This document shows, piece after piece, positions 15,162 to 24,558 of a stretch of DNA of 26,029 bases. The notes below the pieces were generated by a model. That model did not search any database. It worked only from the letters and a program-made list of their open reading frames with translations, and was not told the DNA's origin. Source of the stretch: a virus (lineage: Duplodnaviria; Heunggongvirae; Uroviricota; Caudoviricetes); the IMG/VR virus record IMGVR_UViG_2671180637_000024, positions 1 through 26,029 of that record, one strand, 5' to 3'. The position numbers were made by a program, and so were the translations under genes. The first letter of the stretch is position 1; every line of letters starts with the position of its first letter.

Positions 15162-16223
15162 ATGTCACAGAACTGGATGAGACATTTCGAGCTGCAGCTT
15201 GTGGACGGGAACGGTCAGGGAATTGAGCTAAGTGATTTCAAAGTCACCTTTACGATCGACTGGTTCAACATCAGCAGCGCGTCCCGGGTAGGGACTATCA
15301 AAATTTATAACCTCTCGGCAGATACTGTGAACCGAATTACCGGGCAGGAGTTTTCGAAAGTGCGTCTGATTGCGGGTTACGACGGTATCGCGCCGGAGGG
15401 GTCGGCAAGCGACGTCGGGACAGTGCGGGAAGTTGACGCGGCGGACGTGGGCCAGAGTGATGGTCGCAACTACGGACTGATTTTCAGCGGTGAAATTCGC
15501 TACTCGGTCACAGGAAAAGACAGTCCGGTTGATTCCTACGTCCTGATTCAGGCAGCAGATACTGATCTGGCTTTTGCCACCAGTATAACCTCACAGACGC
15601 TGGCTGCCGGTTACACGGTCGCTGATGTGAACCGTGCGCTGATGAAAGACTTCGAAGCCAAAGGTGTGACCGAAGGCCTGACGCCTGAAATGCCTGCTAC
15701 TGTATTCCCCCGGGGGCGGGTACTCTTTGGCATGACGCGGCATCTAATGGATAACGTAGCCGGGCAATGTGGCGCAACATGGCAATTCGTGGACGGTCAG
15801 CGCCAGATGGTGGCGAATAACGAATATGTTCATGAAGCGATTGTGCTCAACAGCGCTACCGGGCTTATTGGCATGCCGCAGCAGACTATCGGTAACGGCG
15901 TAAACGTCCGCGCGCTTATTAATCCGAACATCCGGGTTAACGGACTTATTCTGCTGGATCAGGCTTCCGTGTATCGTACTGCCTTGTCGAACAACGATAT
16001 TGCGATGGCTGGTGGTCAGATCACCGACCAGAACACGGATGGAAATATCACGCTAAGCGGCACCACATCGCAGCCTGCCAGCATCGCAACGGATGGCGTT
16101 TATATTGTGCGCGGGATTATGTACACTGGCGACACAAGGGGCCAGGCGTGGTACATGGATATGATGTGCGAAGCGCGTGGCGCGGCGGATCTGTATACGC
16201 GATCGGCTTTGCAAAGGGGATGA
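15162..16223 (+). CDS. putative baseplate hub protein (P2 gpD / Mu gpP-like)
   Basis: 353-aa product between tape-measure-proximal genes and baseplate spike; size and position match hub proteins of P2/Mu-type tails. Confidence 0.55.
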   Translation: MSQNWMRHFELQLVDGNGQGIELSDFKVTFTIDWFNISSASRVGTIKIYNLSADTVNRITGQEFSKVRLIAGYDGIAPEGSASDVGTVREVDAADVGQSDGRNYGLIFSGEIRYSVTGKDSPVDSYVLIQAADTDLAFATSITSQTLAAGYTVADVNRALMKDFEAKGVTEGLTPEMPATVFPRGRVLFGMTRHLMDNVAGQCGATWQFVDGQRQMVANNEYVHEAIVLNSATGLIGMPQQTIGNGVNVRALINPNIRVNGLILLDQASVYRTALSNNDIAMAGGQITDQNTDGNITLSGTTSQPASIATDGVYIVRGIMYTGDTRGQAWYMDMMCEARGAADLYTRSALQRG

Positions 16224-16226
16224 GCA

Positions 16227-16568
16227 ATGAGGGGTATTATTTTTCTGTTAGCTGTCTTTTCTGCGTGCAGCGCGTGGGCGGATGGCTTCACGGTTAAATG
16301 CGGTGGCTACACTATGGTTGCAAACCAGGGCGAGTTATCGACTATCAACGGTGAAAGAGTTACCTCTCAAAAAATCACCGAACTGGGTACCAATGGTTTG
16401 AAAGTAGACATGGGGCTTATGCCTGCCAAAGACGGTAACAACTACGGCTTTGAATACATTCGTCGCCCTGGTACCGAAACGCGATTCCTGAATGTCCAGC
16501 TTCTGCAGAACAGCATGGATGCGCCGAAAATCATCGGATCTTTCCCTTGTAAAAAAGTGGCTGGGTGA
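16227..16568 (+). CDS. small exported protein (signal peptide; possible lipoprotein)
   Basis: N-terminus MRGIIFLLAVFSACSAWADG: hydrophobic core then either an AXA signal peptidase I site (AWA|D) or a lipobox-like FSAC; 113 aa; no structural-protein character. Confidence 0.55.
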   Translation: MRGIIFLLAVFSACSAWADGFTVKCGGYTMVANQGELSTINGERVTSQKITELGTNGLKVDMGLMPAKDGNNYGFEYIRRPGTETRFLNVQLLQNSMDAPKIIGSFPCKKVAG

Positions 16569-16661
16569 AGGTAACCTGAAATTCGTAACGCCTGAAAAAC
16601 AACAAAATGTGCTCTAAAAACTGTTGTTTTTTGAGACGAGCGATTACACTGCACTGACTTT

Positions 16662-16688
16662 TTGATGGTGGATTGCCATCGATATGCT
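16662..16688 (+). promoter_or_regulatory. candidate sigma70-like promoter for the accessory cassette
   Basis: TTGATG (16662-16667), 15-nt spacer, TATGCT (16683-16688), about 30 nt upstream of the cassette start codon; weak match, spacing suboptimal. Confidence 0.3.
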
Positions 16689-16717
16689 ACTTCATTAAAG
16701 CCAGGAATAACTAAAAC

Positions 16718-17449
16718 ATGAGTTTAGCGCAGCCAAAATCAGGAGAACTGTTAGATCTTCTGACTCCTTCATTAACTAAGGGTGAAAACCTTCTGAGTGA
16801 GTTTGAAATCCATCGAATCATTCGTGAAGCGAAGAAACTACCTGAACGTTATCAGGGGCTATCAATTGAAGGCTTAGCTAAGCTTGTTCTTGGTGAAATA
16901 GATGAAGGATGTTCACTCTGTGAGCGGGGGTTGAGAATAGCGCCTAACGATCCAGTTTCTTTTTGTAACTATACGATTGCGCTGCGTAACTTAGGTTTGC
17001 ATGCTCGCCAGTATGTGATGATTCAGAAAGCATCTGATTCACTTAATCCAACGATATTGGCTGAGGTTGCTACAATTTCTGCATACTGGGTTGATATCGA
17101 TTTGCTTGAAAAGGTGATGCCGATGCTAACTGCAATGGAAGTACCGCGCCCTGAAGATATGGGCAAATGGTATGACACGCTCAATTATCTGCATACCCAA
17201 AAAGATCATGCTCAGGAGCTAAAAACTATTGGGCGGCTCATGATGAACGTTGCAGAAAAGTACCGCGCTCGTCTTGCTGGCGCTCATGCTTTTTATGTAA
17301 TGTCAGAACTTGATACGCTGTTCGTTGAAGTCAAAACAGACGATCCAGTGCTTCTTTCGCAGATGAATAATGCCTTGGCTGATGAGATTATTATTGCGGG
17401 GCTTGCGGATTCAGAATGCGTCGGATGCTTTGAAGCCGGGGAACTCTAA
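16718..17449 (+). CDS. accessory cassette gene A: hypothetical helical protein (243 aa), candidate partner of the HEPN-like protein
   Basis: Clean ORF with AGGA upstream; lower GC than flanking tail genes; predicted mostly helical with a TPR-like stretch (GLRIAPNDPVSFCNYTIALRNLGLHARQ); no nucleotidyltransferase GS…DxD motif seen. Stop overlaps gene B start (TAATG). Confidence 0.6.
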   Translation: MSLAQPKSGELLDLLTPSLTKGENLLSEFEIHRIIREAKKLPERYQGLSIEGLAKLVLGEIDEGCSLCERGLRIAPNDPVSFCNYTIALRNLGLHARQYVMIQKASDSLNPTILAEVATISAYWVDIDLLEKVMPMLTAMEVPRPEDMGKWYDTLNYLHTQKDHAQELKTIGRLMMNVAEKYRARLAGAHAFYVMSELDTLFVEVKTDDPVLLSQMNNALADEIIIAGLADSECVGCFEAGEL

Positions 17450-17877
17450 TGTCGGTTGAGCATACCTGTTTTCTTGAATTGGCTAAGCATTCCCTGGCTC
17501 TAAACGGTGAGATGTGGACGAGAAATGCTATTAGCCGAGCATACTATGGTATGTACCATTCCGCCTTACGGATCACCAACAATCTGGTACCGACCGCTAC
17601 ACAAGATGGTGAAAAACTAAAAGGTGGAGTTCACATGCGAGTCTATACGGCCTTTTGTAGTGGTGAGGCAGCTGCACTTAACGATGTTGATGTTAACGCA
17701 GTAAAGAAAATCGGCGTTAAACTGAAAATGACGCATGCCCAACGTGTTAATTCTGATTACAAGCTTGAGCGGAAAATCAACCGGATTACCGCGAGAAGTG
17801 TAATTCTGGATGCGGAAGAGGTCGATGCAATCGTTAATCAATTACTGAAGATTGGTGATGACTCGTTAACTGCATAA
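17449..17877 (+). CDS. accessory cassette gene B: HEPN-like domain protein (142 aa)
   Basis: Contains SRAYYGMYHSALR (aa 29-41), GGVHMRVYTAF (aa 59-69) and RVNSDY (aa 99-104) followed by an acidic C-terminal helix; this matches my recollection of the classical HEPN consensus (SRAYYAMFHAAKALL … H … R..ADY). Assignment is from memory, not an HMM hit. Confidence 0.6.
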   Translation: MSVEHTCFLELAKHSLALNGEMWTRNAISRAYYGMYHSALRITNNLVPTATQDGEKLKGGVHMRVYTAFCSGEAAALNDVDVNAVKKIGVKLKMTHAQRVNSDYKLERKINRITARSVILDAEEVDAIVNQLLKIGDDSLTA

Positions 17878-17900
17878 GCTGAAATTTCTCAAAATTCAAA

Positions 17901-17923
17901 CCCGCCACTTGGCGGGTTTTTTG
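17901..17923 (+). terminator. rho-independent terminator downstream of the accessory cassette
   Basis: cccgcc-actt-ggcggg perfect 6-bp GC stem (17901-17916) followed by TTTTTT (17917-17922). Confidence 0.7.
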
Positions 17924-17941
17924 CTTTCTGGAGCCTACTAA

Positions 17942-18694
17942 ATGGCAGTATCTGACCAGACCCGCAGCGGCGACCTTGCCGAAACATTTAAATCCGAACA
18001 GGAAACAACAAAGAACCAGATCCGTGTCGCCTTGCCTGGCATTGTTCAGTCATTCGCTCCTGATGCGGTGACGGCGGTTGTACAGCCTGCTATCCGTTAC
18101 GTTGAAATTGATAACGACGGCAACCGCATTACCAAAAATTACCCATTGCTGGTGGATGTGCCAGTGGTATTCCCGCGTGGCGGAAGCTGTACGCTAACGT
18201 TTCCAGTTAAAGCCGGTGATGAATGTTTGGTGATTTTTGCCGATCGTTGTATTGATTTCTGGTGGCAGAGTGGCGGGATACAGGAGCCGGTCGATGACAG
18301 AATGCATGATTTATCGGATGCGTTTTGTATTGTCGGTCCCCAGTCGCAGGCAAGGAAGATTAGCGGTATTAATACCAGTGCCACACAGTTGCGTAGTGAT
18401 GACGGCAGCACCTATTTTGAGCTTAATCCTGATACCAGGAAAATTAAAATTGTCGCTCCGGGGGGCCTTGATGTGGTTGCCCCTCTGGCTGATTTTTCTG
18501 AGAAAGTAACCATTCATGGCCTGTTAACCTGGATGGGAGGCATGGTGGGGTCTGTTGTTTCTGGTGTGGCTTCAAAAATCACTGGTGCTGTTGAGTTTTT
18601 GGGTAGCGTGAAGGCTAACGGCAAGCCAATCGATGATACGCACACTCATGGTGGTGTTCAGCGCGGTGGAAGCAATACCGACGGAGTAAACTGA
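17942..18694 (+). CDS. baseplate spike / assembly protein V-like
   Basis: 250-aa product with glycine-rich C-terminus, directly upstream of W- and J-like baseplate genes (V-W-J-I order of P2/Mu-type baseplates); GGAG Shine-Dalgarno. Confidence 0.65.
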   Translation: MAVSDQTRSGDLAETFKSEQETTKNQIRVALPGIVQSFAPDAVTAVVQPAIRYVEIDNDGNRITKNYPLLVDVPVVFPRGGSCTLTFPVKAGDECLVIFADRCIDFWWQSGGIQEPVDDRMHDLSDAFCIVGPQSQARKISGINTSATQLRSDDGSTYFELNPDTRKIKIVAPGGLDVVAPLADFSEKVTIHGLLTWMGGMVGSVVSGVASKITGAVEFLGSVKANGKPIDDTHTHGGVQRGGSNTDGVN

Positions 18695-20923: not shown

Positions 20924-21717
20924 TGGCGAAAAATGACTTTAAAGCGTTTGCAACTGATCGAAATGCCAATGTTATGTCGCAGGAGGAATGGGAAGCGTTG
21001 CCTGCGCTTTTATCCGGATTTACAGCAGGGAAAGCATCCAGTGCGCAGGTGAACAAAGCCATTCGACAGGCCAGCTTTATTGCTGCAGCTTTGGCCCAGT
21101 TTGTAAGTGACAAAACGCAACGGGATGTGCTTGATAATGGTGATCTGCCCGGTTTTGTTGAATTGCTTGGATCGGGGTTTGCTGTTGAATACCTGAGCCG
21201 CAAAAATCCGTTTGGCGATATCAAATCGGACGGCACAGTGAAAACGGCTCTCGAAAACCTTGGTTTGGGAGAAGGTGCCCCAGCTATTGGCGTTCCGTTC
21301 TTCTGGCCCTCCGCGGCAATGCCAAATACTGTAATCGACAGCTGGTCCGGTATGGTGTTTTTGAAGTTCAACGGGGCGAAATTTTCTGCCTCTGATTACC
21401 CTGTGCTGGCGAAAGTGTTTCCTTCGCTGGTATTACCTGAAGCCCGCGGTGATTTCATTCGTATCTGGGATGACGGGCGAGGTGCAGATGGTGGTCGCGA
21501 ATTATTAAGCTGGCAGGAAGCTACAAACTTTTCTCAGTTTGCCGGGAATATAGGCGGAGGTGCGGGACACGCAATTAACTTTCATGATGGCATTGCCGGA
21601 AATCAGCCAGGATTTTCACGATTTAATTTCACCAGTAACTCTGTGGGTGATGGTGTGAATTTTGTTGCTGTCAGACCGCGAAATATTGCATTTAACTTTC
21701 TGGTGAGGGCTAAATAA
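20923..21717 (+). CDS. tail fibre protein (constant N-terminal part plus currently expressed variable C-terminal part)
   Basis: Precedes a tail fibre assembly gene; contains the left hix/gix-like crossover site in-frame at 21248-21273. ATG 20923 (ATGA overlap, GGGGAG upstream) preferred over ATG 20905. Confidence 0.7.
21248..21273 (+). repeat. left recombination (crossover) site of the invertible tail-fibre segment
   Basis: CTCTCGAAAACC-TT-GGTTTGGGAGAA resembles the hixL site as I recall it (TTCTTGAAAACC-AA-GGTTTTTGATAA); present in inverted orientation at 22994-23019. Confidence 0.6.
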
Positions 21718-22310
21718 TGAAACCTGTTTTTGATAAAAATGGGCTGGCTACAGTGCCGGGCGATATGCGTTGTTTTTATTATGATGCTGAAACATCTGAG
21801 TATACGGGCTGGTCTGATGAATATATTAATACTGGCGTAAGTATGCCCGCCTGTTCCACTGGTATTGACCCGGGCGAAAACATTCCGGGGAAAGTGGCAG
21901 TATTTACGGGTAAGGGATGGAGCCATGAAGAAGACCATCGCAATGAGACTGTTTACTCAACAGAAAATGGCGCAGCTGTTACAGTGGATTATATCGGTGC
22001 CATCAAAAACGGTTATGTCACGCTTTCACCGTTAACGACATATGATAAATGGGATGGTGAGAAATGGGTGACAGATACTGAGGCACAGCATAACGCCGCA
22101 GTAGAAGCAGCAGAAGCACAGCGCCAGTCACTGATTGATGCAGCAATGGCTTCCATTAGTCTGATTCAGCTGAAATTACAGGCCGGACGGAAACTGACTC
22201 AGGCAGAAACAACCCGACTTAACGCCGTGCTGGATTACATTGACGCGGTGACGGCAACAGATACCAGCACCGCGCCGGATGTCATCTGGCCTGAACTGCC
22301 GGAGGCGTAG
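21717..22310 (+). CDS. tail fibre assembly protein (expressed orientation)
   Basis: 197-aa product following the tail fibre gene with TAATG coupling; C-terminal TSTAPDVIWP motif shared with the oppositely oriented copy. Confidence 0.75.
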   Translation: MKPVFDKNGLATVPGDMRCFYYDAETSEYTGWSDEYINTGVSMPACSTGIDPGENIPGKVAVFTGKGWSHEEDHRNETVYSTENGAAVTVDYIGAIKNGYVTLSPLTTYDKWDGEKWVTDTEAQHNAAVEAAEAQRQSLIDAAMASISLIQLKLQAGRKLTQAETTRLNAVLDYIDAVTATDTSTAPDVIWPELPEA

Positions 22311-22710
22311 GCCATTCAATATCGGGTGCTGTTGACGTATCAACACGCATCAGCAGCACACGGTATTTCTTCCATTGGGTGAGAGCTGTAGCTTCTTCAT
22401 CAGTTGCGATATCAGCATCAACAGCATCCTGATGCCAGGATATTTCACTGTCAGCTTTTTCCCGTAATTGGGATTTTTTAACTTCAGCAATAGCTATTAA
22501 TTCCTTTTTGGTCGGCTGAGGAATATCTATCAGTGCTGGTTTTCCATTCAGTGTTCCAATCTGTTTTCCTGGTGGAATATCCATAAATAACTTTTTATGT
22601 TCTTCCTCACTGACTATTAAACCATCATCAGGCCACAGACCTGATGCCTCAAATTTTTCTTTCTCCGATATGGGGAAAAAGCCATTTGCTTTAGCGCTCC
22701 ATACGTACAT
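22282..22710 (-). CDS. alternative tail fibre assembly protein (silent orientation)
   Basis: 142-aa minus-strand ORF converging on and overlapping the + strand tail-fibre assembly gene by 29 nt; C-terminal TSTAPDIEWP motif; directly follows the alternative fibre segment. Confidence 0.7.
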   Translation of the reverse strand: MYVWSAKANGFFPISEKEKFEASGLWPDDGLIVSEEEHKKLFMDIPPGKQIGTLNGKPALIDIPQPTKKELIAIAEVKKSQLREKADSEISWHQDAVDADIATDEEATALTQWKKYRVLLMRVDTSTAPDIEWPTPPAVQAR

Positions 22711-22711
22711 A

Positions 22712-23005
22712 TCAATACCCCACCGCTATAATGTCCACATTAAATCCCCCGGGACCTGCCTGCCAGATGCTGGCCCCTGTTAATGATTTTGTTTGATGAA
22801 CAACCGCCACATTTGCTGGCGATAGTGTTTCAGTTGTTACAGTACCGATATCATTCCAGTTAATTGAGATGGAATAGTTCGTTGTTGTAAACGACCGGGG
22901 GAAAGTTATGTGTCTTGCATTGGTGCCAACAGGAAATCCAAGATAAACACGCTGAATTATCATTCCTCCAGGTAACATAACCCAGTTAGCACCTTCTCCA
23001 AAACC
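22712..23005 (-). CDS. alternative tail fibre variable C-terminal segment (promoterless; expressed only after inversion)
   Basis: Minus-strand frame …GFGEGANWVML… aligns with the + strand fibre at …GLGEGAPAI… exactly at the crossover site; inversion at the 2-bp core would give an in-frame fusion to the constant N-terminal 113 codons. Confidence 0.6.
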   Translation of the reverse strand, partial: GFGEGANWVMLPGGMIIQRVYLGFPVGTNARHITFPRSFTTTNYSISINWNDIGTVTTETLSPANVAVVHQTKSLTGASIWQAGPGGFNVDIIAVGY

Positions 23006-23019
23006 AACGTTTATGAAAA
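22994..23019 (+). repeat. right recombination (crossover) site of the invertible segment
   Basis: TTCTCCAAAACC-AA-CGTTTATGAAAA; its reverse complement matches the left site over TTGGTTTnGGAGAAGGTGC (19 of 20). Confidence 0.6.
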
Positions 23020-23073
23020 TGCAGAAATAACGAGCAAATGGCATCATTCCTGCTTTTGTCAGGGAGATCTACC

Positions 23074-23628
23074 ATGCTTATTGGCTATGTACGTGTGTCA
23101 ACAAATGACCAGAACACAGATCTACAACGTAATGCGCTGAACTGTGCAGGATGCGAGCTGATTTTTGAAGACAAGATAAGCGGTACAAAGTCCGAAAGGC
23201 CGGGGCTGAAAAAACTGCTCAGGACATTATCGGCAGGCGACACACTGGTTGTCTGGAAGCTGGATCGGCTGGGGCGCAGTATGCGGCATCTTGTCGTGCT
23301 GGTGGAGGAGTTGCGCGAACGAGGCATCAACTTTCGTAGTCTGACTGATTCAATTGATACCAGCACACCAATGGGACGCTTTTTCTTCCATGTGATGGGT
23401 GCCCTGGCTGAAATGGAACGTGAACTGATTGTTGAACGAACAAAAGCAGGACTGGAAGCTGCTCGCGCACAGGGACGAATTGGGGGACGTCGTCCCAAAC
23501 TTACACCAGAACAATGGGCGCAGGCCGGGCGATTAATTGCATCAGGCGTTCCTCGCCAGAAGGTGGCGATCATCTATGATGTTGGCGTATCGACTTTGTA
23601 TAAGAAGTTTCCGGTCGGAGATAAATGA
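23074..23628 (+). CDS. site-specific DNA invertase, serine recombinase (Hin/Gin/Cin/Pin family)
   Basis: N-terminus MLIGYVRVSTNDQNTDLQ with the catalytic serine context, plus C-terminal HTH GRRPKLTPEQ…VGVSTLYKKFP, closely matching Hin/Gin as I recall them; ATG 23074 with AGGGAG upstream (ORF track start 23038). Confidence 0.9.
   Translation: MLIGYVRVSTNDQNTDLQRNALNCAGCELIFEDKISGTKSERPGLKKLLRTLSAGDTLVVWKLDRLGRSMRHLVVLVEELRERGINFRSLTDSIDTSTPMGRFFFHVMGALAEMERELIVERTKAGLEAARAQGRIGGRRPKLTPEQWAQAGRLIASGVPRQKVAIIYDVGVSTLYKKFPVGDK

Positions 23629-23688: not shown

Positions 23689-24558
<870 letters not shown>

Follow-up and report, generated by a model that had tools for sequence, protein, structure and literature searches.

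What are two genes of low G+C content (GC) doing between the baseplate hub gene and the spike gene of an Escherichia coli prophage, within a baseplate operon? The question is raised by IMG/VR record IMGVR_UViG_2671180637_000024, analysed as one stretch of 26,029 nucleotides (positions 1 to 26,029 of that record), here called the window. The two genes, A (243 amino acids; 16718..17449, + strand) and B (142 amino acids; 17449..17877, + strand), had been taken in a sequence-only reading for a defence module of an undescribed kind, built on a HEPN domain and carried as a prophage moron. Comparison with related phages shows that the pair is accessory, exchangeable cargo, a moron, of a Brunovirus/SEN34-like E. 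coli prophage, and B is modelled with a HEPN fold. The explanation favoured here, with confidence about evenly balanced, is that A and B form an accessory module, restricted to phages, of a HEPN toxin and its partner, probably serving exclusion or abortive infection.

An exchangeable gene pair between hub and spike

Both open reading frames (ORFs) are present as had been claimed, and the stop codon of A shares one base with the start codon of B (...CTC TAATG TCG...). A and B are both real genes: comparison with alleles 88-93% and 68-71% identical yields ratios of nonsynonymous to synonymous substitution (dN/dS) of 0.05-0.13, the mark of purifying selection, and the predicted structures are of high confidence (pLDDT 90 and 92). 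Wherever upstream DNA is present, a B-type gene always follows an overlapping partner gene of 243-262 amino acids; this holds for the 43 IMG/VR loci found with B and for loci of Citrobacter, Pseudocitrobacter, Yokenella, Enterobacter, Klebsiella, Xenorhabdus, Aeromonas and Vibrio. The partners of 256-262 amino acids have no BLAST match to A, yet they are homologous to it by profile comparison (hhalign probability 97.4%, E 1.6e-11 over 231 columns for a divergent partner; 92% for the Vibrio partner). The identities of A and B to the window copies co-vary (Spearman rho 0.97), A always diverging faster than B, for example 28% against 40-46% identity. Adjacent, co-directional, overlapping and strictly co-occurring, the two genes have the layout of a type II toxin–antitoxin (TA) system, and they appear to be one accessory two-gene unit. 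As a separate observation, A and B, unrelated in sequence, are listed in a single 90%-identity protein cluster (162 members), perhaps reflecting a fused A-B frame in some assembly, as one base change at TAATG joins them, or a clustering artefact.

The hub gene occurs in 306 of 5426 complete E. coli genomes, and 33 carry the window allele of the cassette. A survey of cargos covered 75 IMG/VR loci whose hub is at least 96% identical to that of the window, and the hub-spike interval of these loci holds 11 cargo classes. The A-B type occupies 22 loci and deeply diverged alleles of the module (256-258 plus 123-131 amino acids) 12; some allele is thus present in about 45% of the sample and none in 41 of the 75 loci. 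Fifteen loci hold only a DUF4282 membrane ORF, seven a 190-residue protein with a YafO-family toxin (Pfam, 4e-17), five an 86-residue protein with a DUF2335 membrane protein, four a membrane protein weakly resembling PycTM, and three a lipoprotein of 241 residues. ORFs of 121 and 73 amino acids on the − strand are found at three and two loci, respectively, while a pair of 207 and 125 residues and a 170-residue protein with an RNNLFH motif are each found once. All these intervals are of low GC (0.37-0.45), and the intergenic sequence upstream is specific to each cargo allele.

Several of these cargos deserve closer description. The YafO-family pair was identified at loci L002, L080, L084, L089, L105, L107, L119 and L123. 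Loci L087, L090, L091, L118 and L113 bear the multi-transmembrane cargos of 176 or 184 residues, weakly similar to the Pycsar effector PycTM (PADLOC E 2.6e-4 to 9e-4), as well as the 170-residue RNNLFH (Rx4H-like) protein. The latter was considered as a further HEPN protein, which could not be confirmed; no library matched it. Phage SEN34 itself (L144, 2831-3499) has in the slot a pair of 77 and 138 residues with no family match, and O145:H28 strain RM13514 has the DUF4282 version. Enteropathogenic E. coli (EPEC) E2348/69 (L146, NZ_LT827011 2551909-2553061) harbours a divergent allele of 256 and 131 residues (WP_000113597, WP_001123212) at the same hub-spike site. The divergence of the cassette is uncoupled from that of its flanks, since A and B with 69 and 71% identity accompany hubs that are either 96% or 48% identical. 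The pair is therefore not a conserved baseplate part of uniform GC: unrelated genes replace it, and only a minority of hub-bearing genomes carry it. The assumption that the hub gene normally runs directly into the spike gene proved wrong, as even the shortest variants keep a small secreted-protein gene and usually a short ORF between them.

The composition of the pair is deviant, with GC of 0.440 for A and 0.441 for B and third-position GC (GC3) of 0.38 and 0.41, against 0.543 for the hub gene, 0.569 for the portal gene and 0.527 for the late genes minus the cassette. The low GC that had been claimed is clear relative to the upstream late genes (0.52-0.57) but modest relative to the downstream baseplate and fibre genes (0.47-0.50), and 37 of 498 cassette-length sliding windows across the whole stretch have an equal or lower GC. 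Three features expected of a moron are nevertheless found, namely variable presence between conserved flanks, deviant composition (0.44 versus 0.53) and a terminator downstream.

This terminator-like element (17898..17929, + strand) lies immediately upstream of the ribosome-binding site (RBS) of the spike gene. Its hairpin at 17898-17919, AAACCCGCCA-CT-TGGCGGGTTT, has a GC-rich stem of 9 bp and is followed by the T tract TTTGCTTTCT. The strong intrinsic terminator that had been assigned to the pair is thus real, but it is not specific to the cassette, being kept in relatives with an entirely different cargo. The hairpin and spike RBS are conserved in 18 of the 20 relatives that were inspected and with almost every type of cargo, the stem being kept while the loop varies (CACTTG, CACCCG, CATTCG or TTCG; window 17898-17941 and loci L002, L003 and L050-L125). 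In about 180 further E. coli genomes, nothing of the query but the terminator and the start of the spike gene is matched. As it is retained at this site irrespective of cargo, the terminator is a property of the slot and of the phage backbone, and forms the conserved right boundary of the variable site. With a strong terminator ahead of an essential late gene, lytic growth would require antitermination, and the tail genes would be insulated in the lysogen.

Upstream of A, the AT-rich intergenic region has the length of 149 bp that had been reported (16569..16717, + strand; GC 0.376) and is the presumed promoter region, with an inverted repeat at 16595-16604/16622-16631. The promoter-like sequence proposed there was not recovered: a sigma-70 consensus scan of the + strand of the 149 bp found no site, and the best candidate read by hand, TTGCCA-17-TAAAGC, matches at only 8 of 12 positions. 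Unlike the window allele, that of locus L050 has a near-consensus sigma-70 promoter, TTGACT-18-TAAAAT, upstream of its 256-residue gene.

The module has other homes. It is present on at least 1000 contigs, in temperate phages of Enterobacterales, Aeromonas and Vibrio, and moves between their accessory sites. In siphoviruses, it sits between the tail chaperone and tape-measure genes (L006, L039, L040) or, beside other cargo, between the tail tube and tape-measure genes (L041). Locus L042 has it between the lysis and the HNH/terminase genes, and L048 in an early region; in L049, the module adjoins an integrase beside mutS. A Xenorhabdus lambdoid phage has the module within a cluster of cargo genes lying between tape measure and gpM, an Aeromonas Mu-like phage between the tape measure and a DNA-circularisation gene, and Klebsiella phage Chronis in a nin-like region. 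A further setting is that of Vibrio phage 10N.286.54.E4_PE001 (L143, 3223-4417), in which a homologous pair of 262 and 138 residues, 30% identical to that of the window (hhalign 92% and 99.6%), is inserted between ogr/portal and gpA. The gpA-gpQ old/tin interval of P2 is an anti-phage defence hotspot (Rousset et al. 2022, PMC9122126), and it is in this hotspot that the copy of the Vibrio P2-like phage sits. The search for the pair in defence sites beyond this prophage thus succeeded for the P2 hotspot, but gave no case outside phages.

Gene B and its TPR-like partner

The sequence-only reading had called B HEPN-like, and structure prediction bears this out at the level of the fold. The model of B is an up-down four-helix bundle, superimposable on solved HEPN domains, and assigns it to the HEPN fold, AF0298/UPF0332 (PF05168 HEPN-T) type. 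Links to PF05168 also come through its relatives: four distant ones have a precomputed match to this family, some are named ‘HEPN domain-containing’, and the JGI annotation of B relatives is ‘UPF0332 family’. The protein of the window, in contrast, has no match at the Pfam gathering threshold for PF05168 (22 bits), which the 123-residue allele approaches (19.6 bits, E 0.001), and it lacks the Rx4-6H motif. A sequence search against the PDB returned only a marginal match to 2hsb (E 0.11), and in PHROGs both A and B match only families of function unknown.

At the place of the Rx4-6H motif, B has R99-V-N-S-D103-Y104, and, without exception among 23 close and 15 diverse members of the family, a tyrosine stands at the position of the histidine. 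An alignment reaching down to 23% identity leaves E21, R25, S29, Y32, Y33, H37, H62, L92, R99, D103, Y104 and L106 invariant in the family. In the model, an insert (residues 44-60) between helices 2 and 3 is followed by a helix, and H62 is found at the start of this helix. In AF0298-like HEPN-T proteins and in AbiV, which was grouped with them on this account, the histidine of the motif is lost and the arginine retained, while a second conserved histidine comes from an insert between helices 2 and 3; this residue was proposed to restore the active site, giving an alternative RNase site that needs no metal (Anantharaman et al. 2013, PMC3710099). With R99 kept, the histidine replaced by tyrosine and the invariant H62 at the described position of the alternative histidine, B appears, from its alignment, to fit this subgroup. 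RNase activity of B is plausible by analogy, because AbiV was demonstrated to act as a metal-independent rRNase (bioRxiv 10.1101/2024.05.05.592566).

The partner of B has quite another architecture. The model of A comprises about ten helices (residues 7-181), forming a TPR-like α-solenoid over residues ~1-181, and then a β-β-α-β unit (186-240) as C-terminal domain, for which the PDB offers no sequence relative. A profile search of 1.84 billion representatives retrieved about 50 full-length relatives of 240-275 amino acids; the remaining matches are generic long TPR proteins aligning repeatedly to residues 42-112, and no informative domain fusions were found. Conservation over the wider family is confined to few residues, which form no conserved catalytic constellation. 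Family scans and structure comparison gave no nucleotidyltransferase, DNA-binding or catalytic signature, and A has no match at curated thresholds in Pfam, NCBIfam or PADLOC (best PADLOC match PDC-M71B, E 0.037). The claim that A is not the usual nucleotidyltransferase partner therefore stands, and A is proposed to be a partner, keeper or sensor of B.

The novelty claimed for the pair is also upheld by these libraries: no Pfam, NCBIfam or PADLOC family matches at curated thresholds, and PADLOC-DB v2.0.0 gave no system match for A or B, the divergent alleles faring no better. The accessions WP_000110002, WP_000050470, WP_000113597 and WP_001123212 are not mentioned in the literature and supplements searched. 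A literature search, in which the relevant papers were incompletely covered, returned no description of the A-B family, of its partner or of the hub-spike slot as a hotspot.

Possible function and related systems

How might such a pair work? According to the favoured explanation, A and B would be co-translated from their overlapping genes and bind to form a complex in the lysogen, in which A would hold B inactive and neutralise its toxicity. B would then be freed or activated by a cue, the most plausible being a superinfecting phage's protein bound to the TPR surface, or else the loss of A. Dimers of B would cut RNA, and the growth of the infected cell or of the invader would stop. Such a TA-like outcome, exclusion or abortive infection, would benefit the lysogen and the resident prophage. 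The toxin-plus-partner reading is preferred because the genes are strictly paired and translationally coupled, and because B co-diverges with a repeat protein that evolves faster than itself. It also draws on the number of deeply diverged alleles that compete for a single slot, on the YafO toxin pairs that share this slot, on the old/tin residence in a P2-like phage and on the PD-T4-3 homologue present in the same prophage. A bolder version, possible but tentative, makes of A-B a split sensor-effector immune module: the diversifying TPR protein A would sense competing phages and free a HEPN RNase that uses an arginine and an alternative histidine, and the hub-spike slot would be an unrecognised anti-phage hotspot inside a tail operon.

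A number of observations weigh against the favoured explanation. The other cargos of the slot are mostly membrane or secreted proteins, with no defence annotation and no validated defence genes among them, and every copy of the module seen was in a phage, none in a chromosomal defence island. No convincing promoter was found for the window allele by the consensus scan, and the two genes, which lie in the orientation of the late operon, may thus be expressed only late in the lytic cycle. As to the proteins, B lacks the canonical catalytic histidine of Rx4-6H and could be non-catalytic; it has no Pfam match and no NCBIfam match at curated threshold, and its sole PADLOC match is HEPN_IX, at E 0.009 (0.0094). 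A, which exceeds the putative toxin in size, lacks the DNA-binding domain that type II antitoxins typically have. Finally, A, B and the E2348/69 allele are absent from the searchable tables and supplements of the DefensePredictor E. coli study.

Some of these points are shared by rival explanations. The orientation of the genes, their embedding in the late operon and the missing sigma-70 promoter would suit a late-lytic function, transcribed with the tail operon and acting late in infection, for instance in the degradation of host or competitor RNA, in countering a defence of the host or in the tuning of late expression, instead of immunity of the lysogen; so would the restriction of the module to phages, mostly inside tail-gene modules. 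This reading is unlikely, though it deserves attention. The pair is dispensable, as relatives with a hub at least 96% identical lack the module or carry unrelated cargo, and it is insulated from the spike gene by the conserved terminator, as a moron with expression of its own should be. The near-consensus promoter of the L050 allele and the copies in early, nin-like, integrase-adjacent and P2 old/tin places, which are not late operons, point in the same direction. A selfish TA addiction module that stabilises itself or the prophage, with no anti-phage role, overlaps with the favoured explanation; its overlapping genes with the partner first, the YafO-family toxin pair in the same slot of relatives and the frequency of HEPN as a toxin fold (PMC3710099) all speak for it. 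It is nonetheless rather unlikely, given that A is a large TPR scaffold devoid of the DNA-binding domain of classical antitoxins, and that the faster evolution of A and the many deeply diverged alleles at one site fit an arms race better.

The missing histidine (R99-x4-Y104) and the lack of a Pfam match for the window protein might also mean that B is a non-catalytic HEPN, RNA-binding or adaptor, as proposed for MtlR-type HEPNs, and that the pair is a regulatory complex. This is improbable in view of the twelve positions invariant down to 23% identity, which include R25, H37, H62, R99, D103 and Y104, and of H62 occupying the place described for the alternative catalytic histidine of AF0298-type HEPNs (PMC3710099). 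As for a baseplate assembly factor or structural tail part, for example a TPR chaperone, it would account for the hub-spike position being kept even in phages whose hub is only ~48% identical, and TPR proteins are often chaperones. Such a role is nevertheless scarcely credible: the structural-component reading is contradicted by the distribution of the pair (33 of 306 hub-bearing E. coli genomes with the window allele, 41 of 75 loci with no allele at all) and was rejected. Unrelated genes replace the pair, its siphovirus, P2-like and lambdoid copies lie at non-baseplate sites, and structure comparison found no structural-protein fold in either A or B.

The toxin-plus-partner reading can be set against several known systems. 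AF0298-like HEPN-T proteins (PF05168/UPF0332; PDB 2hsb) are the nearest fold type, although B of the window falls below every Pfam threshold; typical PF05168 proteins are paired with minimal nucleotidyltransferases (MNT) in archaea and thermophiles, whereas the partner of B is TPR-like. In HepT-MntA (HEPN-MNT, type VII TA), the toxin has an Rx4HxY motif that is absent from B, and the antitoxin is a nucleotidyltransferase, which A is not; neutralisation of B by AMPylation is therefore not expected, and a HEPN-MNT identity of the pair was ruled out for want of an adjacent nucleotidyltransferase. Lactococcal AbiV is, like B, a single-domain HEPN protein, and acts in phage exclusion, but its structural similarity to B is weak (Foldseek rank 31, probability 0.20) and its antitoxin is an RNA, whereas B has a conserved protein partner. 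An RNA antitoxin, or type III TA, was considered for the window pair and rejected, since the window has no Rfam match and the genes have no array of tandem or direct repeats nearby.

In the anti-T4 systems RnlA-RnlB and LsoA-LsoB, a HEPN toxin is held by a protein, in a mode analogous to that proposed for A-B. RnlA and LsoA are, unlike B, multi-domain proteins with a canonical Rx4-6H, and their antitoxins are, unlike A, small, unrelated to TPR proteins and encoded downstream. RNase L, a repeat-sensor-plus-HEPN protein, resembles the proposed logic of the pair. The association of HEPN with TPR-class repeats recurs in AbiU2 with its Sel1-repeat gene and in LA2681, fused to or in operon with TPR (PMC3710099), but these are different HEPN families with the canonical motif and no detected sequence relationship to A or B. 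The HEPN-TPR/Sel1 operon theme has thus been known since 2013, for other HEPN families. DS-28 (DefensePredictor, PMC13092281) is a validated two-gene E. coli system of similar size, made of a HEPN nuclease of 163 residues and a protein of 252 residues; its gene order is reversed, its motif is a canonical RNSVAH, and by eye its sequences are unrelated to A and B. As to the site, the hub-spike slot shares with the P2 old/tin site its conserved flanks and its many low-GC cargos ending at a terminator; it differs in being located inside a baseplate operon, in a different phage lineage, and in having no cargo validated as defence.

Surroundings of the cassette and significance

The window contains the late region of an E. 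coli prophage with a backbone similar to that of Salmonella phage SEN34, genus Brunovirus: small and large terminase, portal, head, sheath, tube, tape measure, baseplate genes and tail fibres, beyond which come a Pin-type invertase, a GIY-YIG gene and a host gene of the AraC family. Across the cassette region, E. coli WAT and JNEC-KY175 are 100% identical to it. The hub gene (353 amino acids; 15162..16223, + strand) matches the baseplate hub family phrog_196 (E 3.9e-88) and, weakly, Pfam E217_GP41 (E 2.5e-4), and is the conserved left anchor of the variable site. The right anchor, likewise conserved, is the spike gene (250 amino acids; 17942..18694, + strand), identified by PF18352 (E 1.2e-42) with a GpV Apex motif and named ‘membrane-puncturing spike protein’ in RefSeq.

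Between the hub gene and the pair lies a gene of 113 amino acids with an N-terminal signal peptide (16227..16568, + strand; phrog_3443, function unknown; UniRef name ‘Secreted protein’), which constitutes the left side of the variable region and stands outside the A-B module. Its product is 56-73% identical to the window copy in L007, L008 and L030, the hubs of which are 97-98% identical, and in some relatives the gene is swapped for that of the 241-residue lipoprotein or of a protein of 139-161 residues. This gene is possibly a moron in its own right, with a surface or exclusion role.

Two further features of the prophage are of a different nature. A GIY-YIG protein of 274 residues (23689-24513, − strand) is a homologue of PD-T4-3, with a full-length PADLOC match (E 2e-140) and a match to Pfam LEM-3_GIY-YIG; its gene adjoins the invertase at the prophage end, a second cargo site that thus holds a recognised defence gene. 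In E. coli WAT, identical across the cassette, this prophage end carries an XF1762-family gene and a hypothetical gene instead. The stretch 21717-23628 is a typical invertible host-range segment, in which convergent tail-fibre-assembly genes (21717-22310, +, and 22282-22710, −) are followed by a gp53-like fragment (22712-23047, −) and a Pin-type recombinase gene (23038-23628).

The significance of the pair depends on which explanation holds. If it merely acts as a selfish TA module, or serves the phage through late expression, its interest is modest. If it is a working exclusion system, it would represent a widespread prophage immunity module of E. coli and Enterobacterales that is absent from PADLOC-DB v2.0.0, Pfam and NCBIfam. 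It would then provide a tractable case of the AF0298-type HEPN site, whose activity has been proposed but little tested, with EPEC E2348/69 as a convenient strain for experiments. The many deeply diverged alleles found at one site would be a natural series for mapping partner recognition by a TPR protein, and the slot would be a new cargo hotspot within a tail operon, one that could be mined as the P2 and P4 hotspots have been.

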